Source of the DNA: Asterionella formosa
Lineage: Eukaryota
DNA: 52,810 nucleotides
Reading direction: 5' to 3'
Assembly: GCA_002256025.1 (NCBI GenBank)
Contig: NKIB01013710.1
Location: forward strand, 1-52,810
Positions 2,405-28,007 of this stretch are shown here, in pieces; position 1 is the stretch's first letter, and each line of letters starts with the position of its first letter. The position numbers were made by a program, and so were the translations under genes. The notes beneath the pieces are model-generated. The model saw only the letters and a program-made list of their open reading frames with translations, did not search any database and was not told the origin of the DNA.

Positions 2405-3274
2405 AGCTACCAATTTTTTGATGGGACGGAAGCTATCATTTCATTGATTGTAGAGGGCTGGTATTTATTGTGACCATGGGTGTATAGGTGAAAGTAAAAT
2501 GTAATTTGTATTCAATATTATGATTAGAAGGACAAAATGAATCGATGAATAAGAGAAAAGACAATTCAATTTTTGCTTGTACGGTGTTAAATAGGGCAGG
2601 TCTTTACAGAGATACAAAAATTTAAAATATTTTGCTTGGCCCAATTTTGTATCTCACCCATCTGGGTGGTATGTTGCTTCCAGCAACACATTTTTTGTTG
2701 CTCTGAAATGTGTAGCTGTTTGTATTGCTGCAGATACAACATTAAGCCACAGGTAATGATATAAATTTAATTTACGTAATGTAATTAAATTAATCAAGAA
2801 ACACATCATTTTTATCTCTAACAGCAACAACAGAAAAGAATGTTGCTCCAGCTGCTGCTACTTCTCATCATGGCATCAATTGATTCTTCATACAATGAAT
2901 GTTAATCTGCATCAAAGAAACTGAATGATCAATGGGTTGCAAGCACTACTCCTGTTGATTTTTTCATGGACAGCGAGGGACAATTGACAATGATAAAAGA
3001 TATTCTCATCCAACAGATATCCCTACAACGACTTCGAATATTTTGTGTTTACTTTAAAAACTCTGGATACAGAAACAAAACCAAGGCAATTACTGTTACA
3101 CTCATTAAGAATTGGTTAAAGAATCTTGACCTTCAAGATATGATTGGGTATAACAAAAATTCATCCAAACAACCGAAGCTGTATCTGAAAAGAAATTGAA
3201 TTCCTTTTACTCCTGAATCATAAACAAGGAAGTCTCCTTGCCTACCATCAAAGCAACTTTCTGCCACCAGAAGA

Positions 3275-3840
3275 NNNNNNNNNNNNNNNNNNNNNNNNNN
3301 NNNNNNNNNNNNNNNNNNNNNNNNNNNNNNNNNNNNNNNNNNNNNNNNNNNNNNNNNNNNNNNNNNNNNNNNNNNNNNNNNNNNNNNNNNNNNNNNNNNN
3401 NNNNNNNNNNNNNNNNNNNNNNNNNNNNNNNNNNNNNNNNNNNNNNNNNNNNNNNNNNNNNNNNNNNNNNNNNNNNNNNNNNNNNNNNNNNNNNNNNNNN
3501 NNNNNNNNNNNNNNNNNNNNNNNNNNNNNNNNNNNNNNNNNNNNNNNNNNNNNNNNNNNNNNNNNNNNNNNNNNNNNNNNNNNNNNNNNNNNNNNNNNNN
3601 NNNNNNNNNNNNNNNNNNNNNNNNNNNNNNNNNNNNNNNNNNNNNNNNNNNNNNNNNNNNNNNNNNNNNNNNNNNNNNNNNNNNNNNNNNNNNNNNNNNN
3701 NNNNNNNNNNNNNNNNNNNNNNNNNNNNNNNNNNNNNNNNNNNNNNNNNNNNNNNNNNNNNNNNNNNNNNNNNNNNNNNNNNNNNNNNNNNNNNNNNNNN
3801 NNNNNNNNNNNNNNNNNNNNNNNNNNNNNNNNNNNNNNNN
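3275..3840. other. Assembly gap (566 N)
   Basis: Run of N. The three ORFs crossing it are artefacts. Confidence 1.
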
Positions 3841-4229
3841 AACTCACTTTTGATAAGTTGGATAGCAAACAATTGTCAGAGGTTATGGAATTTCTAAATG
3901 CCCATTACAAGATCTGTTTCAATAATAACAAAGTTTCTGGTCAACACAACAATTAACAATTTTGACAATTTCACTCATAACCGGCCTTATTGTATGTACT
4001 ATCATCTATGGCTTCACCAGGTGCCACATTTCCGCGCCTATTCAGTGCCAAGTTTAAGTGATGGTGTTGTTGCGGACAGTACAATTCATTTCCCTGCAGA
4101 GGATGAAGTTGCCACGCTCCCTGTTCAACGAGAAAAGGGAGAAAAAATGACAGGAATGAGTTTGAAATCACGTCAAAACAAGTGGTTGATGCTCTTATAG
4201 AATTTTCAAAATCAAATGAACGCCATACA

Positions 4230-14543: not shown

Positions 14544-17500
14544 ATGCCTCTTGAGGAAATCATTGAGGACCAGCTGGTAGAAGTGGACTCCAACTGGTCG
14601 TCGTTGTCATCTCTGTCAAGTCACGTCAATCAGGGGTTTCTGGACACACATGATTCAGTTTCTATGGACCTATGGGATTCTGACATGCTTATGAAAATCG
14701 AAGAAGGCTCCTGCAGCAAGCAAGTGGTTTCGGAAGTCTCCTTGACCGATCACGAAAAACTAATCGCGTCCATTGATTGGTTGAAAGATCACGTACCAGT
14801 CTGTGTTCTAAACCAGTTAGGACAGGAGAACAAGAAACTCGGGCTCAGCAGCAACGAGCTTCCACATAAATCAAATCATGAAAGTGCTTTACTATTCGTA
14901 GACGTTGCTGGATTTACGCAACTTTCACTGATTGTGGACCCAGAACAGCTATCCAAGGTAAGTCTTACACTTCACTATGCACATCCAACCCTTCTTGGTA
15001 GGCTGGGGCAGCCAGACAAAACAGGCCATCAACTCACTATTGAGTATTACGACCTAGATCATCAATTCATATTTCCAGCTCATCGTCAATGAGATTGTTT
15101 GCACGGGGGGTGACGTGATCAAGTTTGCCGGTGACGCTCTATTTGCAGAGTGGGAAGTAGTGGCACCAATACAGAATGAAACTGGATTTTCAAGATCGCT
15201 ACCTGAATGTGTGGCCATAGCTGCGACATGTGGAGCGCGCATTGTCGCTAGCCTTTCTGATTTCTCGGTATATGGGAGCATTAGTAGTGGCAATGGCTAT
15301 TCGTCTGGAAGCGCACTTGCCGTTCTCAACATTCATTGTGGGTTAGGAGCGGGTACAATCATTGGGATTCACGTGGGAGACAACGAATGCAGGAGAGAGT
15401 ATCTCATACTGGGAGATGCTATCGATCAAATTGCAGAAGCTTCTGAGCATGCATCCCTTGGGCAACTTGTTGCATCAAGAGAAGCGCTTGACTTGTTGAA
15501 TCAAACTTGTCGGTTAGACCCCAGTGTCACAGAGTCACCTGATGCACGATGCGCACTCATAGCCCACGACAATACATCCTTGTTCGATCCATTGCCGACG
15601 TCGACTTGGATGGAAAAGGGCGAGAACGTCATAGAATATAGTAAATGGAAGGAGATGAACATCAAGAAATTGAAGGAGTACCAAAAGTTGTTGTCGCTAT
15701 ACGTCCATCCTGTTGTGGTTGATAATGATAGGCTGATCACTGACTCTCATCGCGCGAGAAAGGTTCAGCAACGACACAGCGAAGAAGCTCAAATAAGAAG
15801 CGTCTACACTATGTTCATTGGCATTCCCGAAATAAGTGTCGTTGGCGACGACAGCATCGATGACCAAAAGAAGATCGAGACGCTAAATAATATAATGAAC
15901 TTGACAACGAGGACGCTGGACCGTTTCAATGGCCATCTTCGTCAATTCATTTTTGATGACAAAGGCCTTGTCCTAATTGCTACCTTTGGTCTTCGCGGAT
16001 CAACGTGCCCGAACATGATCGCAGACAGAGCCCTGCCAGCAACATGCGTAATATATGATGCATTAAGATTGGAACTTGGTATTCAGAGTCGAATTGGAGC
16101 TACACTTGGCAATGCGTATTGTGGTGTTATTGGTGGCATTACCCGTCACGAATATGCTGTTCTTGGTGCCTCCGTAAATCTTGCTGCCAGGCTGATGTCC
16201 TCAAAAGGAAATCCAGGAATTCTTGTTGACGATGCTGTACGGCAGAACGCCGACAAAGCTGCTGCATTTACTGCCTTACCTCCTGTCCAAGCCAAAAGCT
16301 ATGCTGACCCTGTGCCTATCTATGAACCCTTGAGAAATAGAGAACAAGATTGGGGCATTCCACAGACTGTTTTTGTTGGCAGGGAAAGAGAAATCTCAGA
16401 AATTATCAGTATCGTCCAAGATATGGTATCCAATAGGCTTCCACCAAAGGTTACACTGGTGGAAGCATCAACTGGACTTGGAAAGACAGCCTTGATTGTT
16501 CACGCCGTTGAAAGCATTATCAGCACGCTTAGAAAGGAAAACAAGAGAGTGACAGTCCTACGTCATGTTTGCAAAGAAAGTCAAAAAAATGTTCCATTGA
16601 ATATATTTCGTTCCATTCTTGTGGATCTATTAGACGTCCCAGATGACGCATACAGCGGTGTAGAGGAAGTGTCCGAGAACTCATTCTCCAACAATTTAGA
16701 GGGAAACTTTGGGGCTTCCATTGGTAACTCTTCCTCAAAACGGACTATATCTGTGTCGATGAATCAACTACTTGCGATCTGTGAACAAGTTCGAGCACCC
16801 CCAGAATTCACACAATGGATAGCTCGACATTTGCTTGACGTAGATTTGGAGCCGGTCAGTCGAGAGGTTCCCAAAAACGCCAAACTGCCAGCACTCGACT
16901 TGACATTACGGTTGCTGGCGCAACTGTTTGAATTGTGCACGTCGAAGTCGGCTTTTGTACTTCTCGCCCTGGACGATGTGCATTACTTGGATGAATTTTC
17001 CGCGAGAGTTGTGGAATCATTTCTCCGAACAAAGGGGACAATGCTAATTATTTGCACTTCTCGACCCCTACCTAGAATAAGGACGCAGGTAGGTTTTGAC
17101 CTATGGGAAAATCTTGAGCGCGCGTATGAAAAGGAAAATAGATTTATTTCAATAAAGCTGAAGCGTCTGAATGAATATGATATTCGAAGTATGATTGCAA
17201 AGAAGCTTGACCTCAAAGAAGAACAAATATCAGACGCTTTCGTAGAAGGTGTTTTTGAAAATTCTGCTGGAGAGCCACCATTCGCAAATGAGATTTTAGA
17301 GAATGCAAAACGAAAAAACTTCGTAAAATTTCTTCCCGCCAGTCGAACCTACGGCTTTGACGACGACCAATCTCCGTTTGCAACAGTCAAGGAATTGATG
17401 GTGACCCGAATCGACGCTTTTGACTCGGAAGTTCGGAACTTGCTCGACATTGCGGCAGTCATGGGTGACTCATTCGAGATGTCAGATGTAGGGGCAGTGG

Positions 17501-19131
17501 TACATAGAAAATCTGGAGATGCTTATACAAGTGAAAATTGGCTATTGCACATACTGCGTGTGCAGCGGTTGCTTGATCAACTTGTTGAAGAAGGAATTCT
17601 AATTGAAAACATAGGTGACAATAGACTCCTGAAAACTGTTTATAAGAAGGCAGAAAGTGGTGAGGTGAACGGTAAAGTCGAAAATCGCGAGTTTTTCTTT
17701 ACACACAGCGTTTGGAGATCAGTGGTGTTAAAGATGATGTTACGCATTCGTCAAGCTGTGATTCACAGATACATTGCACTGGTACTAGAAGGAAAGCAAC
17801 AAGTTTCTGCCAGTGACTACATTCAGAAGATGAAATTGTTTCAACACTGGAAAGCAAGTAGCGATACATCAAAGGCCGCAACGTTGGCCCTCTCGATCGG
17901 AGAAAGCCTGGAGGATCTGGGGATGAGTGAAGATGGATCCAGAGTATTTGAGGAAGCACTCTCTATGTGGGAGGAAGATGATGTCGAAGGGGCGGTCGAG
18001 GCAGTGAAAGGTTTTACATTGGAAGCACTTGAGTCGATCGATGCGTTAGATCTTGACTTTATCATCAGATTAAAATGCGGGATTGGCAGATGCGCTGCGA
18101 AAATGGATGACGCAACTCTATGTGTCACAGCATACTGTTCAGCTTTGCGAATTCTCCAGATCTGTCCAAGTGCTGATGACCTTGCAGACCGTTCTGTAGT
18201 ATTTCCAGTCTTTAGTGGCCTTTTCCTCTGTATTCGTATGGGGACAATCGAGCAAGATTCCGATTTGAGCTACGAACAGCTTCTAGTGAGGAGCTTTATG
18301 CACGAGACTCGTGTCCGTGGTGATGAGATACATTATATTCGCGCCTTGGCCATGCAAGGTGAATTGTGCGCAAAAATGGGCAGGTATGATCAAGCATTCG
18401 AAGCCCACCGTGAACTCGAACAGGTTTATGACCCCGGTAGGCATTCGCGGAAATTGTGCAAGATTTACGTAACAGATTGCGCTGCTGCAAGCTTTAGCAG
18501 AAGTGCGATCTGGCACCTCCAAGAGTGCTATGGTATGAGAGCCATTGAAACCTGCCAAATCGTATTAAGTGACATTATACCAAAGATGGAACCCAGCAAT
18601 GTATACAACACCACGAGGCTGATTTATCCAATTCTTTGGGTAATGCAAGACTTAGGGAAGGCAGCCGAAGCCCGAGTGGCATTCGAGGAGCACGTGGTAG
18701 AGAAGTTCAAACTGTACCATGGAGAGGGTATTACAACAGTCAGTAATTGGCCACTCTATGCATCCATCTTGATGGTGCTAGATCTAGCAAGTCATCGAAG
18801 TGAGGAGAAAATCGAACGAGAGGACGAATACAAAGCATGGGCGATGAACATAAAAAACCTCCAGTTTGGTAGCATTTCAAACATCTCGATGGCTCATTTC
18901 GGCCGTGCACCTGATTCGATATCTGCCGAAATTTGCCTATTTTTAGCAGAACGCTCCATGGACAAGGTAGAAAGAGCCGCATTGCTACAGAATGGCATTG
19001 ACGTTATCACGGAGCTAGCTATGTGCATCATGAATACGGCAGACTTGAAATCTTCCTATGCTTACTCCAAGGTTGAGTCAGTTCTTGAGGACCTGGCTGC
19101 AGCATGCTCAAAGGAATTAAAAAAGGAGTGA
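14544..19131 (+). CDS. Soluble adenylyl cyclase-like protein (ADCY10-type: two class III cyclase domains, STAND P-loop NTPase, helical/TPR-like C-terminus), 2 exons: 14544-14957, 15058-19131
   Basis: Intron 14958-15057 (GTAAGT..CCTAG) gives ..QLSK-IINSYFQLIVNEI..GGDVIKFAGDAL. Motifs LLFVDVAGFT, FDDKG and HEYAVLGASVNLAARLM. FVGREREI, Walker A ASTGLGKT and Walker B LLALDD follow. Confidence 0.92.
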
Positions 19132-23359: not shown

Positions 23360-24581
23360 GGTAGATTATTGCTTTTCCGTCAAAAATGATTATGCTCGCG
23401 TATACCGGTAATGGTGTTGGTAGATATGAATATGTATATAATTATGTGTCGCATATATCAAATTCAGTACCCAGTACATTTAGATTATTTTAGCCTATTG
23501 CCGGCAGATAAATATATACAACTATATTTGATTACAATTCAGTATTTCTTCGTTAATTACCGGTAGTTAATATATGTAAAAAATGGTCGTTCTGGCTGGA
23601 AGGGTTGCTTGTCGAAGCCAAAGGAACCTTCGATGAAAATGAATACTTCGACCACAACGGTAACGCTCAGAAACCCTTGCTTGTTCCCAATGTAGTACCC
23701 CATCGATGGCCAGACCACACATAACCCCATCTGGGATGGTTCTCAGTACAGGTGGTAGATGCTACGTATCTGTACCTCTCACACAGTAAAAGTTGCAAGA
23801 AAAATGTTTTTACACAATTTGTTTGTTTTACTTTGTTTAATAATAGTTGTTTTTATAAAAGAGTGAGCTCAATGTAAATGTAAATTTGAATGTATAATTT
23901 TGAAACTTCCAAGCTCATGCATGTTTCAAAATAGAGGTGATCTTTGGAGGCAAGGTTCATTTGTGTTCCCAACTTGAACTGAGAATAAACTACAGCCTCT
24001 TCCTAAATACACATTTGTCTAATCTTGGCCTGTCTCAACTTAGGCCAGTTGCTTTTTGATCGAAGACTGCTAACATAATGATCCTGTTAATCATAACTAG
24101 ATCATATCTAGTTTGCTTCTTTAATGTTCCTTGATTTTGCGGACATATCTGTAATTGTCTAGTCAATCATTTATTGATTTCTTGGCCTCTAGGTGTGATC
24201 GTCTTCTAGAGTCCATTTAAAAGGTTAGAGAGAACTTCTCCTGAAAGTTCCGCTCTCAACTGTGGCATTTTACACGCGATATTAATCCATGTGTCCTTGA
24301 ATCAATCATCTAGTGGATTGTGGTACATGTTCACAATCAGGTCACTACAGACGAAAATATATTGACACTATCATAACCTGATCTGGAATCAGGAATCTCT
24401 ATAGGTTTCAACTACTAACAGGTACTTTCTCATTCTGACCACATTGTTTTCCAGAATTATAAATATTTATTCCAGAATTTTATAGTTATCATTTCTAATT
24501 ATCACCATTTTTAGTTGATAACGACGGGCGGATGCAAGCATCACTTCTCCTGAACGTTCAACCAACAGCAATAACGTACCA

Positions 24582-26795
24582 ATGAAGGGACATCCTCCTC
24601 CGAAGCATCCGTCCACATGTCAGGGATGTTCCGTCGTGTTTGAATCCAAAAACGCACTATTCCGTCACTTGCGAGAAACCAATGGCGGTTGTTTGACAGG
24701 AGACGACTATGACAATTTTGTTCATTATGGAGCAAAGGAAGCTCGTACCGTCAAGTCGATTGTTTTGTTTGGATACTTGCCGTCATGGTTAGAACGGAAA
24801 CAACGACCAAAAACTACTACTGCAAAGATTTCTTGTGGAAAAGATGCCGCCGACCTATTGGTACAGGTCATATCGACTGCCAATTCAGAGCGATGGACTC
24901 GGTCCTATGGATGTGCCTCGCGGGGGACTGTCATTACTCAGCAAGATGAAGGAACTGGAGCTATAACAGAATTACTATGCCTCAAATTAGTGCCCCTCCT
25001 AGACCCATTGACACAAGATGAATGGATATTACAAATCAATGACAAATTGAACCACCTCCTTCGAGACGATGACGCAGAAATTCGGGTCCTAGGACGAATG
25101 GATATGCCATTTGCAAAGTTCAATGCAGAAATGGATGTATCTCATCGTCGTATTGATTATTTGTTGCCGCTTGATTTCTTCCATGACGCAAACCAACAAG
25201 CATTGTCCAAACAAGCGTTTTTTGATAGTTTGCCTTCGTTTTCGGCTGGCTACCTTTCCAAAGAACAAAAAGAATTGCAACGACCTAAACCAGAAACATT
25301 GGCATATTTGCATCAGCTCAAGAGACAGAGGCAACTTTTGACGACACCAATTGTTGAATTGGATCCAAATGACACCGCTGCCATTTTGGAAAAGGAATTT
25401 CATCTCAAGAAACGTAGGCGCCAGAAAAAGAACAACAGTAATAAGGAGGGCGTTGCAAAAAGGATTGACCAAGAAAAAGACGAAAAGACATTTGGCCCTG
25501 TTACTGGAAACGTCCTAAGACGTCGTAGGTTTCACAACTTTACACCACGTGGTATGGCGCATGAGTTCTTGGCATTTCGACGATTGGATCGCTTCTATCA
25601 TCGAGCCACATTGAGGTTACATCATGGTCATCCTTTTCTTGTACTGTCGTTGACAGGAGATCTTTTTCTCAATGGACAAGCTCCTAGAGTTGTGGGTCTG
25701 TTCCTTGCCATTACCAAGGGAATGATTGATGAGGAGATTGTGGAGTGTATCTATGATGAAGAGTATCCTCACTTGGTTCCTACACCGCCAGCTCCATCTT
25801 TTGCAATGTTTTCTGGTGAGGCGTCGTACATAAGTTGGGAGGGAAAGGCCAAGGCAATTTTGACGGCTAGAAACGCGGATCGATACCCCAATGGGTTCAG
25901 TCGTCAGGAGGTATTGGATAGAACTACGGCATGGGAGAAGGTTATTCACGATAAAATTGCAAATGGCTGGATGAAGGAAGGTTTCGATCCAGATGGTCGA
26001 CTGGTAGCCGAACGAATGTGGTTCGAAGAAGTTCTGCAACCTTGGACAAAGAGAGCAAAGGAACAGCTCCAGGATTACCGACAATGGAAGGCACAAAACA
26101 AATCTACAACGGAACAAACTGAAACCTTGCCCCCACTTGAAACGGTTGATCAAACCATCCCTAAGTTGTATGAGAAGGTTTTGGAGTGCCTACGTAATGC
26201 AGACGCTAGTGGAAATTGGCCATCGACGACACCCAAACGCCAACTTGTTATGATTTCTACACCCAATGACGAAAACGTCGCCGACGCTCCGGCGTCCTTG
26301 TCAATGGCTCACTTGAAAGCCAAGGCAAATAACAAGGCGGAACGGTCGTCGGCTTATGCGTATGCAGAAGGTGAGGGTGGAGCCTCGGGGTCCTTCTCTG
26401 TTGGAGCCATGCCTGGCGAACTATGCATCCAACCAAAGGGAAATGAAATGTTCCCTGACTTGATGAAGGCTGCGTTTGAACTTGAGATTGCATTGTGCCC
26501 AAATCGAGAACCATCGTCGACGATTGCCATTAATCGAAATGCTCAATTCCGTCCCCACACTGATTCAGGTGCTGGTGCTGGTCAATCAACTTCATTGATT
26601 GTTGCCCTTGGAACTTTTGTTGGGGGTGAACTTGTCGTGGAAGGGGAAAAGAAAGATATTCGTTACAAGGCGATCGAATTCAATGGCTGGACGCAACGCC
26701 ACTGGACGATGCCATTCAAGGGAGAGCGTTACTCGCTCGTGTGGTTCACACCCAAGGGATGTGAAGGAATTCACGGCATTGACTTGTGCAAATAA
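24582..26795 (+). CDS. C2H2 zinc finger, TruA/Pus1-like pseudouridine synthase fold and C-terminal 2OG-Fe(II) oxygenase fusion protein
   Basis: CQGC..FESKNALFRHL. Pus1-like blocks FNAEMDVSHRRIDYLLP, RFHNFT, GDLFLNGQAPRVVG and PPAP. C-terminal HTD...GGEL...FNG...H.T.PF.GERYSLVWF (HxD..H triad plus RxS). Confidence 0.8.
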   Translation: MKGHPPPKHPSTCQGCSVVFESKNALFRHLRETNGGCLTGDDYDNFVHYGAKEARTVKSIVLFGYLPSWLERKQRPKTTTAKISCGKDAADLLVQVISTANSERWTRSYGCASRGTVITQQDEGTGAITELLCLKLVPLLDPLTQDEWILQINDKLNHLLRDDDAEIRVLGRMDMPFAKFNAEMDVSHRRIDYLLPLDFFHDANQQALSKQAFFDSLPSFSAGYLSKEQKELQRPKPETLAYLHQLKRQRQLLTTPIVELDPNDTAAILEKEFHLKKRRRQKKNNSNKEGVAKRIDQEKDEKTFGPVTGNVLRRRRFHNFTPRGMAHEFLAFRRLDRFYHRATLRLHHGHPFLVLSLTGDLFLNGQAPRVVGLFLAITKGMIDEEIVECIYDEEYPHLVPTPPAPSFAMFSGEASYISWEGKAKAILTARNADRYPNGFSRQEVLDRTTAWEKVIHDKIANGWMKEGFDPDGRLVAERMWFEEVLQPWTKRAKEQLQDYRQWKAQNKSTTEQTETLPPLETVDQTIPKLYEKVLECLRNADASGNWPSTTPKRQLVMISTPNDENVADAPASLSMAHLKAKANNKAERSSAYAYAEGEGGASGSFSVGAMPGELCIQPKGNEMFPDLMKAAFELEIALCPNREPSSTIAINRNAQFRPHTDSGAGAGQSTSLIVALGTFVGGELVVEGEKKDIRYKAIEFNGWTQRHWTMPFKGERYSLVWFTPKGCEGIHGIDLCK

Positions 26796-27023: not shown

Positions 27024-28007
27024 TTACTTTCGTGTTACCAATTTTCGCCACTGATTGATGTCTAGTGGCTGCCCGACGGCATTATCAACAATTATTCGTC
27101 CTGTCCTGCCGTCCAAAACGCAAAGTCTAGGAATACCACTCACTTTAATGTAACCAAGCAACGCTTCTCTTGCATCGTCGTCATAGTCAACTGCCAACCA
27201 AGGCATCTTGCTATAGTAGGACAGCATGCTCTTCTCATCATGGTCAGCCGATAAAAACACGACTTCGATTCCAGCGTTGGTATTCAAGGACTGATACCAC
27301 TGTACCAACTTTGGTGTAAATTGTCGGCACGGTCCACACCAAGAGGCGGATGCATACAAAAGAATAAATTCTTTCCCACCCAACGCGTCAGCAAGGGGCA
27401 TTTTATTTTCTTGTTTCAACAATGTTCCAACGAATTTAAAAAGTGATTTGATCCCATCTGAAAGACCCAGCGGTACAATGGGATCGCAAGGCACCGAAAA
27501 GACCTCGCTACCAACCGCTCGAACTCTGAATTGATAGCCACGAGGGGATGTGAGGTGCTTCTTAATGACTTGTGTTCCCGAGAGTGACGGTGCCACCGTG
27601 GTCCATTCGACGCCACCGGCTTGTTCCCTCATTTGCAATTCATAGGAGGCAGTATCATCTATTTTGTCCCATTGTATCAGCACCGCTTGATTCGAGCCTG
27701 CTCCTGATACAGTCGGCGCATTACTTCGAATGGCATTTTCAGGCAGTACCGAAAAGGCGTTTGGATGGGACACCCACGTCTTGGGGGATTCATCGCCGTT
27801 TCGCAGCGGACCTACCCGAAAGAAATACTGATGATTCGGGTCCAGATTCTTTTTTCGAGCTTGCGTCGTGGTCAGTTTGTCAGATAGTGTGGTGAATTCC
27901 TCGTCGACGGAGGCGCGATATTGTAGTACGTATTTGAGCGCTCCGGGAAACTCATTCCACGAGATGCTAAGAGAGTCGGATGTGGCGTCAATGAGGGCAA
28001 CCTTCAT
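27024..28007 (-). CDS. Two fibronectin type III domains fused to a nucleoredoxin/tryparedoxin-type thioredoxin domain
   Basis: Two FN3-like blocks (LSISW..YVLQYR..NLDP..YFFRV; VLIQW..YELQMR..YQFRVRA). LYASASWCGPCRQFTP, IEVVFLSAD, MPWLAV and VSGIPRL. Confidence 0.88.
   Translation of the reverse strand: MKVALIDATSDSLSISWNEFPGALKYVLQYRASVDEEFTTLSDKLTTTQARKKNLDPNHQYFFRVGPLRNGDESPKTWVSHPNAFSVLPENAIRSNAPTVSGAGSNQAVLIQWDKIDDTASYELQMREQAGGVEWTTVAPSLSGTQVIKKHLTSPRGYQFRVRAVGSEVFSVPCDPIVPLGLSDGIKSLFKFVGTLLKQENKMPLADALGGKEFILLYASASWCGPCRQFTPKLVQWYQSLNTNAGIEVVFLSADHDEKSMLSYYSKMPWLAVDYDDDAREALLGYIKVSGIPRLCVLDGRTGRIIVDNAVGQPLDINQWRKLVTRK

Follow-up and report, generated by a model that had tools for sequence, protein, structure and literature searches.

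A diatom protein that couples a Pus1/TruA-type fold to a predicted TET/JBP-like dioxygenase

Enzymes of the TET/JBP group oxidize 5-methylpyrimidines in DNA and occasionally in RNA, and pseudouridine synthases (Pus enzymes) are isomerases. The substrate of Pus enzymes of the TruA/Pus1 type is tRNA, and many of these enzymes modify its anticodon arm; their active sites contain the Arg and Asp of an RTD motif and the Tyr of an RxYxY motif. RNA binding and oxidation are combined in ALKBH8, the animal tRNA wobble-uridine enzyme, which comprises an RNA-binding domain, a 2-oxoglutarate (2OG) oxygenase, and a methyltransferase. Here, we describe a gene of the diatom Asterionella formosa, on contig NKIB01013710.1 of assembly GCA_002256025.1, whose 737-residue product (P0001) combines a C2H2-like zinc finger, a Pus1/TruA-type fold, and a predicted TET/JBP-like Fe(II)/2OG dioxygenase in a single chain. 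Positions refer to the window, the whole stretch of 52,810 nucleotides that was analysed (Table 1). From sequence comparison and structural models, we estimate a probability of about one half that this protein oxidizes a base of a nucleic acid, probably RNA, and that its Pus fold serves to bind the substrate.

An abstract published by Iyer et al. in 2009 is said to describe an algal family of 2OG dioxygenases with diverse architectures and a predicted role in RNA modification; this may be the present family, and the fusion has possibly been predicted computationally already. Full-text literature searches, which did not cover that article in Cell Cycle, found no paper describing a fusion of Pus and 2OG/TET domains. 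The available portion of a 2010 article from the Aravind group mentions a bacterial gene-neighbourhood link between a JmjC protein and a pseudouridine synthase and no other Pus link, and it refers to earlier work of that group predicting several families of RNA-acting 2OG dioxygenases (PMC2938197). For a conserved fusion of Pus and TET/JBP-like domains, present in RNA libraries, no characterised example was found.

The C-terminal oxygenase and its viral relatives

The C-terminal domain consists of an N-terminal helix (residues 525-542), a diatom-specific loop (~560-597), and a core folded as a double-stranded beta-helix (~598-730). A separate model of this domain, built from a broader alignment, reached a predicted local distance difference test (pLDDT) score of 86 and a predicted template modelling (pTM) score of 0.82. 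A phmmer search with residues 530-737 against 1.84 billion representatives returned 1081 proteins at E<=1e-3, 255 of them at E<=1e-30; although these proteins vary widely in length, their cores share 50-80% identity. The initial annotation had noted an intact HxD...H motif and an RxS motif, and both hold up throughout the family. A set of 326 oxygenase-bearing relatives was aligned to the profile of the diatom proteins, and about 180 of these relatives extend over the Pus catalytic loop. In this set the putative iron ligands are kept almost without exception (H659 in 319 of 320, D661 in 320 of 321, and H707 in 312 of 312), as are R716 (309 of 310) and S718 (304 of 310, with Thr in the other six), which form the predicted 2OG anchor. 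N651 (324 of 324) and Q668 (319 of 319) are also near-invariant. Because the oxygenase is the most strongly constrained part of the protein, it is the likely catalyst.

Several lines of comparison place this domain beside the TET/JBP enzymes. In a Foldseek search with the model of the whole protein, the first matches other than Pus enzymes were CcTet (7vpn_D, E 4.6e-4) and NgTET1 (5cg8, E 2e-3). A merged algal and viral profile, compared with the PDB, matched Naegleria Tet (E 1.2e-3) and then CcTet (E 0.034), and in its alignment to Naegleria Tet the HxD motif, the distal His, and the following Arg all line up; a viral profile alone matched Naegleria Tet and no other entry (E 0.001). The algal family profile alone retrieved no solved oxygenase from the PDB, the only matches being to aldo-keto reductases (AKRs) and arising from its extended rows, and a PHROGs search with the oxygenase domain returned nothing. 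Pfam detected no Tet_JBP match in the 737-residue protein, and the diatom oxygenase thus differs from the TET/JBP enzymes (NgTet1, CcTet; PF12851) in falling below the Pfam threshold. Tet_JBP is the commonest weak match among relatives (10 of 33 at E<=1, best E 0.0041, sub-threshold). Since motifs, gene company, and, by a narrow margin, fold agree despite the failure at the Pfam threshold, the domain is, as judged by sequence and model, TET/JBP-like rather than AlkB- or TYW5-like. The 2OG-Fe(II) fold proposed in the initial annotation is therefore retained with its motifs intact; the ALKBH family and TYW5, which it had cited, give way to a TET/JBP-like kinship, to which Foldseek, profiles, and viral gene links all point.

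The same Foldseek list contains PHD2, ABH2, a bacterial P4H, and AlkB (E 2.5e-3 to 4e-3), so that two other activities joined to an RNA-binding fold must be weighed: AlkB-like oxidative demethylation, in RNA repair or in the erasure of m1A, m3C, or m1G, and hydroxylation of prolyl or lysyl residues in proteins, as by PHD and P4H enzymes. An Arg nine residues past the distal His, a spacing said to be like that of PHD-type enzymes, and the matches of viral relatives to PF13640, of which the best, at 26.0 bits, stays just under the cut-off of 27, would fit such an enzyme. In the fold search TET structures nevertheless rank higher, and no other oxygenase is matched significantly by the profiles; neither AlkB nor ABH2 appears when the viral and merged profiles are compared with the PDB. 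The gene company of the viral relatives is a TET-associated glycosyltransferase (TAGT). The AlkB motif is RxxxxxR, and the second Arg, six residues past R716, is missing here, position 722 being Phe in 300 of 306 relatives. We therefore regard a demethylase or protein hydroxylase of this kind as very improbable.

The nearest oxygenase relatives outside the family, as far as sequence comparison indicates, are small viral proteins, which were first pointed to by a language-model look-up. A scan of viral contigs (IMG/VR) identified 19 loci (L001-L019) with such relatives, three of them giant-virus bins. The viral proteins are 31-46% identical to the oxygenase core over about 100 residues, and comparison of the algal and viral profiles by hhalign gave a probability of 99.7% (E 2.6e-26). 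The N, HxD, GG, H, and RYS positions are invariant in algal and viral oxygenases alike. The viral proteins, which share the core with the diatom protein, differ from it by their stand-alone size (92-504 residues), the absence of a Pus domain, and their TAGT, kinase, and HNH-like partners. Where they have DxxN, the diatom oxygenase has DSGAGAGQS, with a three-residue Gly-rich insertion after HxD. A viral homolog searched by tblastn against GenBank records of isolated phages gave no match.

In three of nine viral loci examined the oxygenase is linked to a TAGT, a further likeness of the family to TET/JBP systems. It is fused to this glycosyltransferase (PF20691, E 1.4e-15) at L005 (1915-3426), and the genes directly adjoin one another at L008 (1293-2593) and L018 (692-1921). 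Two of these three relatives lie on giant-virus bins, and the arrangement suggests a DNA hypermodification resembling that of base J in uncultured viruses. The company of these genes also suggests that the oxygenase module of the algal proteins originated from small viral oxygenases encoded beside TET-associated glycosyltransferases. At L006 (1993-3246), L009 (2290-3246), and similar loci, the N-terminal part of the viral relatives is a P-loop nucleotide kinase, accompanied by one or two repeated modules, rich in Cys, that match zinc-binding PHROGs families of the HNH/endonuclease VII type. A giant-virus bin with an oxygenase relative (L016, 294-971) also contains a bacteriorhodopsin-like gene about 2 kb away.

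The Pus-like domain and the zinc finger

The central region has, according to its model, a Pus1/TruA fold, and this fold assignment is beyond doubt. The full-length protein as modelled by AlphaFold has a mean pLDDT of 77.7 and a pTM of 0.75, with pLDDT values mostly between 80 and 95 in the Pus region. Its best Foldseek match is human PUS1 (4nz6_B, E 3.3e-15, TM(target) 0.74), followed by yeast PUS1, TruA, and PUS3, the last two at a probability of 1.00. Sequence searches agree: phmmer against the PDB recovered human PUS1 with residues 315-407 (E 0.0015), and a profile of 25 sequences improved this match to E 1.7e-5 and gained bacterial TruA. The N-half of the domain matched nothing in the PDB by phmmer but one spurious entry. 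A Pfam scan of the 737-residue protein yielded no domain above threshold, and PF01416 was not matched even at E<=10. This family is matched at E<=1 by 18 of 25 orthologs (best E 2.3e-6), and its gathering score is exceeded in some distant relatives, among them P0136 (31.5 against 23.3 bits). The Pus-like region named in the initial annotation was thus recovered by structure, sequence, and profile.

The domain is laid out as an N-half (residues 55-200), a low-confidence insertion (~201-310), a C-half (~310-425), and a helical extension (~440-507). With PUS1, PUS3, and TruA it shares the overall fold, the C-half blocks FHNFT and GxxFxxxQxR, and the Asp of the catalytic loop; it differs from them in lacking the active-site Arg and Tyr, and in its long basic insertion and helical C-terminal extension. 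The Lys/Arg-rich part of the insertion possibly serves as a nuclear-localisation or RNA-binding stretch.

The active site of this domain is degenerate. As the initial annotation had read it, the catalytic loop is TQQDEGTGA; its equation with the RTD loop is based on the family alignment and the fold. Asp122 is kept, and Gln120 and Gln121 stand at the positions of the Arg and Thr. Position 122 is Asp in 150 of the 180 relatives that cover it, Glu in 26, and another residue in 4, and Gln121 is found in 170. The Arg position, in contrast, is freely variable (Ala in 81, Arg in 28, Gln in 19, Glu in 12, and Lys in 9). The RxYxY motif, also correctly noted before, reads RRIDY. Across the family, position 191 is occupied by Val (76), Ile (47), Tyr (30), or Met (11), and position 193 is Tyr in 171. 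A few distant members keep both the canonical RTDxGxH loop and the Tyr: the reductase-bearing P0237, P0262, and P0294, and P0181, which has no reductase. P0293 has RAD at the loop. A second set of diatom paralogs, which end in an FkbM-type domain, mostly have QD or QE and retain the Tyr, and the clade of the 737-residue protein has QD and has lost it. Because distant members hold the canonical loop and Tyr, the Pus site appears from the alignment to have decayed inside the family, in the order RTD with Tyr, QD with Tyr, and QD without Tyr.

Since the Arg and Tyr of canonical TruA-family enzymes are gone, the Pus domain probably makes no pseudouridine any more. Structures of the PUS3 mutants R116A and D118A are among the Foldseek matches, and both mutants are reportedly inactive. 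The initial annotation had left the choice between a bifunctional enzyme and a dead Pus fold that delivers RNA to a hydroxylase; the variable Arg and Tyr, set against the near-invariant iron triad of the oxygenase, lean towards a degenerate Pus fold that presents nucleic acid. In a bifunctional enzyme, the Pus domain would isomerise uridine by means of Asp122 in a remodelled QD pocket, and the oxygenase would modify the same or a neighbouring nucleotide. The acidic residue at position 122 in 176 of 180 relatives, the conserved Gln121, and the constant order of Pus domain and oxygenase would all suit such a protein, and the distant members with a full RTDxGxH loop and Tyr make it probable that the family descends from an active synthase. 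Yet Gln stands here in place of the Arg, two residues ahead of the Asp, at a position that varies at will within the clade, the Tyr has become Ile here and Val, Ile, or Met in most relatives, Glu replaces the Asp in 26, and the Arg and Asp are the very residues altered in the PUS3 mutant structures. We consider a two-step enzyme of this sort unlikely.

The N-terminal C2H2-like finger proposed in the initial annotation is present as C13-x2-C16-x12-H29. The fourth zinc ligand is likely, from its conservation, to be C37 in place of a second His. C13, C16, and H29 are invariant in 25 orthologs and C37 is kept in at least 90% of them; among about 160 aligned relatives, the four residues occur in 156, 156, 161, and 154, respectively. 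The classical C2H2 pattern (PF00096, C-x2-4-C-x12-H-x3-5-H) does not apply, the second His being absent and C37 standing seven residues on. The Pfam zf-C2H2 match scores 13.1 bits, short of the 25.2 required, and zf-C2H2_4 is found at E<=1 in 19 of 25 orthologs.

Architecture of the family and the predicted substrate

A word-indexed protein search, in which 8000 candidates were scored, returned 270 matches at E<=1e-3, a number that rules out a chance open reading frame (ORF). The best 120 of these 270 have E values from 0 to 1.6e-194 and coverage mostly of 88-100%, and the organisms named among these 120 are diatoms only. Full-length relatives occur in both pennate and centric diatoms, the genera including Seminavis, Cylindrotheca, Nitzschia, Pseudo-nitzschia, Mayamaea, Epithemia, Thalassiosira, and Skeletonema; this taxonomic range is drawn from the relatives that carry organism names. 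Many relatives are annotated 'TruA' in one source. An oxygenase is borne by 262 of 272 proteins collected, and in 217 of the 262 a Pus part can be recognised as well; of the remaining 45, most are short fragments. The fusion is therefore the rule and not an accident of one gene model, and the Pus domain precedes the oxygenase throughout. The survey of phyletic spread and of the QD Asp that the initial annotation had proposed thus finds the fusion across diatoms and, in its AKR-bearing form, in a dinoflagellate, with the Asp largely conserved.

The view of the fusion as a diatom oddity did not survive this survey. As judged by domain matches, the core of finger, Pus fold, and oxygenase belongs to a wider algal family; it extends beyond the clade of the 737-residue protein and is joined there by further enzyme domains. 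Of the 262 proteins, 19 have an AKR after the oxygenase, including P0167 of the dinoflagellate Symbiodinium natans, and the reductase-bearing P0237 has an R3H domain in addition. An FkbM-type methyltransferase ends the second diatom paralog, as in P0321 of Stephanocyclus and P0329 of Cyclotella cryptica; the oxygenase of this paralog is about 40% identical to that of the class of the 737-residue protein, and C. cryptica has gene models in both classes (P0276 and P0329). P0314, P0309, and others are further diatom paralogs ending in FkbM. In P0333, a Trm10 domain (tRNA m1G9 methyltransferase; E 2.1e-46 to 4jwh) follows the oxygenase, the layout being finger 41-66, Pus 112-400, oxygenase 511-698, and Trm10 ~786-969. 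Ankyrin repeats and RanBP-type zinc ribbons occur in P0157, P0299, and P0305, the zinc ribbon being found in P0157 and P0299. The Nitzschia protein P0298, which includes a piece of PRMT, may be a merged gene model.

We favour the reading that the protein is a three-module enzyme of the cytosol or nucleus whose sole working catalyst would be the C-terminal oxygenase. The zinc finger and Pus fold would bind structured RNA, most likely tRNA, and would keep a pyrimidine in place or flip it out, while the Pus domain would retain its fold and its pocket acid, Asp122, without synthesizing pseudouridine. The oxygenase, with Fe(II) held by H659, D661, and H707 and 2OG by R716 and S718, would use O2 to hydroxylate a substituent of the base. 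By analogy with its nearest relatives, the predicted target is the 5-methyl group of a pyrimidine, 5-methylcytosine (m5C) or 5-methyluridine (m5U), which would be converted to hydroxymethyl or oxidized further. We infer the oxygenase activity, the choice of RNA over DNA, the chemical position, and the silence of the Pus domain from this combination of features. The Pus fold is cast as a presenter of RNA, probably tRNA, because its attachment is permanent, because Trm10, R3H, and RanBP domains are fused to the same core, and because its catalytic site has decayed. A TET/JBP enzyme of this build would differ from the matched TET entries, in which a Pus fold and zinc finger are absent, and its substrate may be RNA. 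In bringing a tRNA-binding module, a 2OG hydroxylase and, in sister clades, a methyltransferase (FkbM or Trm10) into one chain, the predicted layout resembles ALKBH8, whose oxygenase differs in being of the AlkB type and which has no Pus fold; no sequence relationship to ALKBH8 appeared in any search made. That the added methyltransferases and reductases carry out multi-step processing of the new hydroxyl or aldehyde is speculation.

Several observations weigh against this reading. The conservation of Asp122 (Asp in 150 and Glu in 26 of 180) and Gln121 (170 of 180) implies selection on the Pus pocket, which may still catalyse a reaction. The sole direct pointer to tRNA is the Trm10 fusion of P0333, a two-sequence cluster represented by one assembled contig of 3.3 kb. 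In the Foldseek list, PHD2, ABH2, the bacterial P4H, and AlkB (2.5-4e-3) follow the best TET match (4.6e-4) at a small distance, and the best Tet_JBP (PF12851) score among relatives, 17.6 bits, falls far short of the cut-off of 34.9. Finally, the closest oxygenase relatives of known context, the TET enzymes and the viral genes linked to TAGT, are modifiers of DNA, and a C2H2-like finger suits DNA as well as RNA.

These last points bear on a DNA-directed enzyme of the TET/JBP type, which would oxidize 5-methylcytosine or thymine in diatom DNA and use the finger and Pus fold for targeting to DNA or chromatin or as a binder of an RNA guide. DNA is the substrate of CcTet and NgTET1, the best matches among solved structures, and the viral company of TAGT, P-loop kinase, and HNH/EndoVII-like zinc modules is typical of DNA hypermodification. 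The added Trm10, R3H, and RanBP-type domains nevertheless point to RNA, and we know of no Pus-fold protein with DNA as its substrate. Dinoflagellates, the group in which the AKR-extended P0167 is found, make DNA 5-hydroxymethyluracil (5hmU) with TET/JBP homologs, and the thymidine hydroxylases CryTJ1 and AmpTJ1 are such homologs with an HRD motif, according to PMC11572971. The text of that paper names no Pus or reductase domain for either protein, their architecture being given in a figure. The HRD motif is found in 46 of about 320 members of our family and in 1 of 33 members of the AKR class. Taken together, a DNA-directed function appears rather improbable.

The gene, its surroundings and its significance

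The gene is a single-exon ORF on the forward strand, 24582..26795, with an ATG start and with neither internal stops nor introns, in agreement with the uninterrupted 737-residue frame of the initial annotation. The corresponding protein of another assembly (P0002) matches at 718 of 719 positions. Contigs from poly(A) RNA libraries of several studies are colinear with the whole ORF, without joints or indels; they start at 24562 (X1), 24498 (X4), and 24473 (X2), that is, 20, 84, and 109 nucleotides upstream of the ATG, and all extend past 27300. These contigs cannot by themselves prove transcription, and the same contigs enter the convergent neighbouring gene. Five MMETSP transcripts marked 'type:complete' carry full-length orthologs. 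With colinear contigs spanning the ORF and complete transcripts elsewhere, nothing indicates two genes or an interruption by introns; the single gene assumed at the outset stands, and the unbroken contigs speak against a split into two genes or an intron. A tblastn search of the 52,810-nucleotide window found no second copy.

Table 1. Positions of the gene, its predicted domains and motifs, and the downstream neighbour in the window
Feature	Residues	Position	Strand	Remarks
Whole gene	1-737	24582..26795	+	Single-exon ORF, ATG start, 737 residues (P0001), stop codon included
N-terminal zinc finger, C13-x2-C16-x12-H29-x7-C37	~11-38	24612..24695	+	C2H2-like, C2HC ligand set
Pus1/TruA-fold domain	~55-505	24744..26096	+	Foldseek, phmmer, profile, PF01416 in orthologs
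Degenerate catalytic loop TQQDEGTGA	119-127	24936..24962	+	Replaces canonical xRTDxGVHA
RRIDY	189-193	25146..25160	+	HMMER-aligned to RTYCY of human PUS1; Ile191 replaces first Tyr
Lys/Arg-rich insertion between Pus halves	~274-316	25401..25529	+	Poorly ordered, pLDDT <50 at 290-304
Predicted TET/JBP-like Fe(II)/2OG dioxygenase domain	525-737	26154..26792	+	Foldseek, hhalign, profiles, domain model
Predicted HxD iron ligands H659-T660-D661	659-661	26556..26564	+	Aligned to HKD of Naegleria Tet
Predicted distal iron-binding His707	707	26700..26702	+	Aligned to distal His of Naegleria Tet
R716-Y-S718, predicted 2OG C5-carboxylate anchor	716-718	26727..26735	+	R716 aligned to Arg of GWRIGL, Naegleria Tet
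Convergent downstream neighbour		27024..28007	-	Fibronectin-III + thioredoxin-like (nucleoredoxin-type) protein

The setting is that of an ordinary eukaryotic locus, with genes for a NIF-type phosphatase and a proteasome subunit upstream. The convergent gene downstream is separated by a spacer of 228 nucleotides. Since the RNA-library contigs cross both genes, it is probable that the two 3' ends meet or overlap inside this spacer. Elsewhere in the window, an ORF of 1173 residues (15610..19131, forward strand) has a signalling-type architecture, with a partial adenylate/guanylate cyclase, an AAA_16 ATPase, and a weak TPR match. An assembly gap, a run of N, extends from 3237 to about 3900; because of it, the G+C content of 14.6% in the 3001-4000 bin is only apparent.

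The fusion ranges across the diatoms and recurs with extra reductase or methyltransferase domains in a dinoflagellate and in other eukaryotic transcriptomes, and its presence suggests that major marine algae have a nucleic-acid modification as yet uncharacterised. The gene described here offers a concrete starting point in the search for new modifications of RNA, or of DNA, in ecologically dominant algae, and the family as a whole would give a stepwise picture of a catalytic RNA-modifying fold decaying into a binding module. A more specific proposal can be made tentatively, as a possibility short of an even chance: that these proteins are RNA writers of diatoms and dinoflagellates, in which a base-flipping reader derived from a Pus enzyme and a virus-related TET-type oxygenase together produce an oxidized pyrimidine (hydroxymethyl, formyl, or hydroxy) in tRNA. 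If this is true, sister clades would process the product within the same chain, by FkbM O-methylation, by aldo-keto reduction, or by coupling to Trm10 m1G9 formation. The oxidized tRNA pyrimidine would then be a modification as yet undescribed in these algae, and a set of unknown RNA adducts would exist in some of the main primary producers of the ocean.

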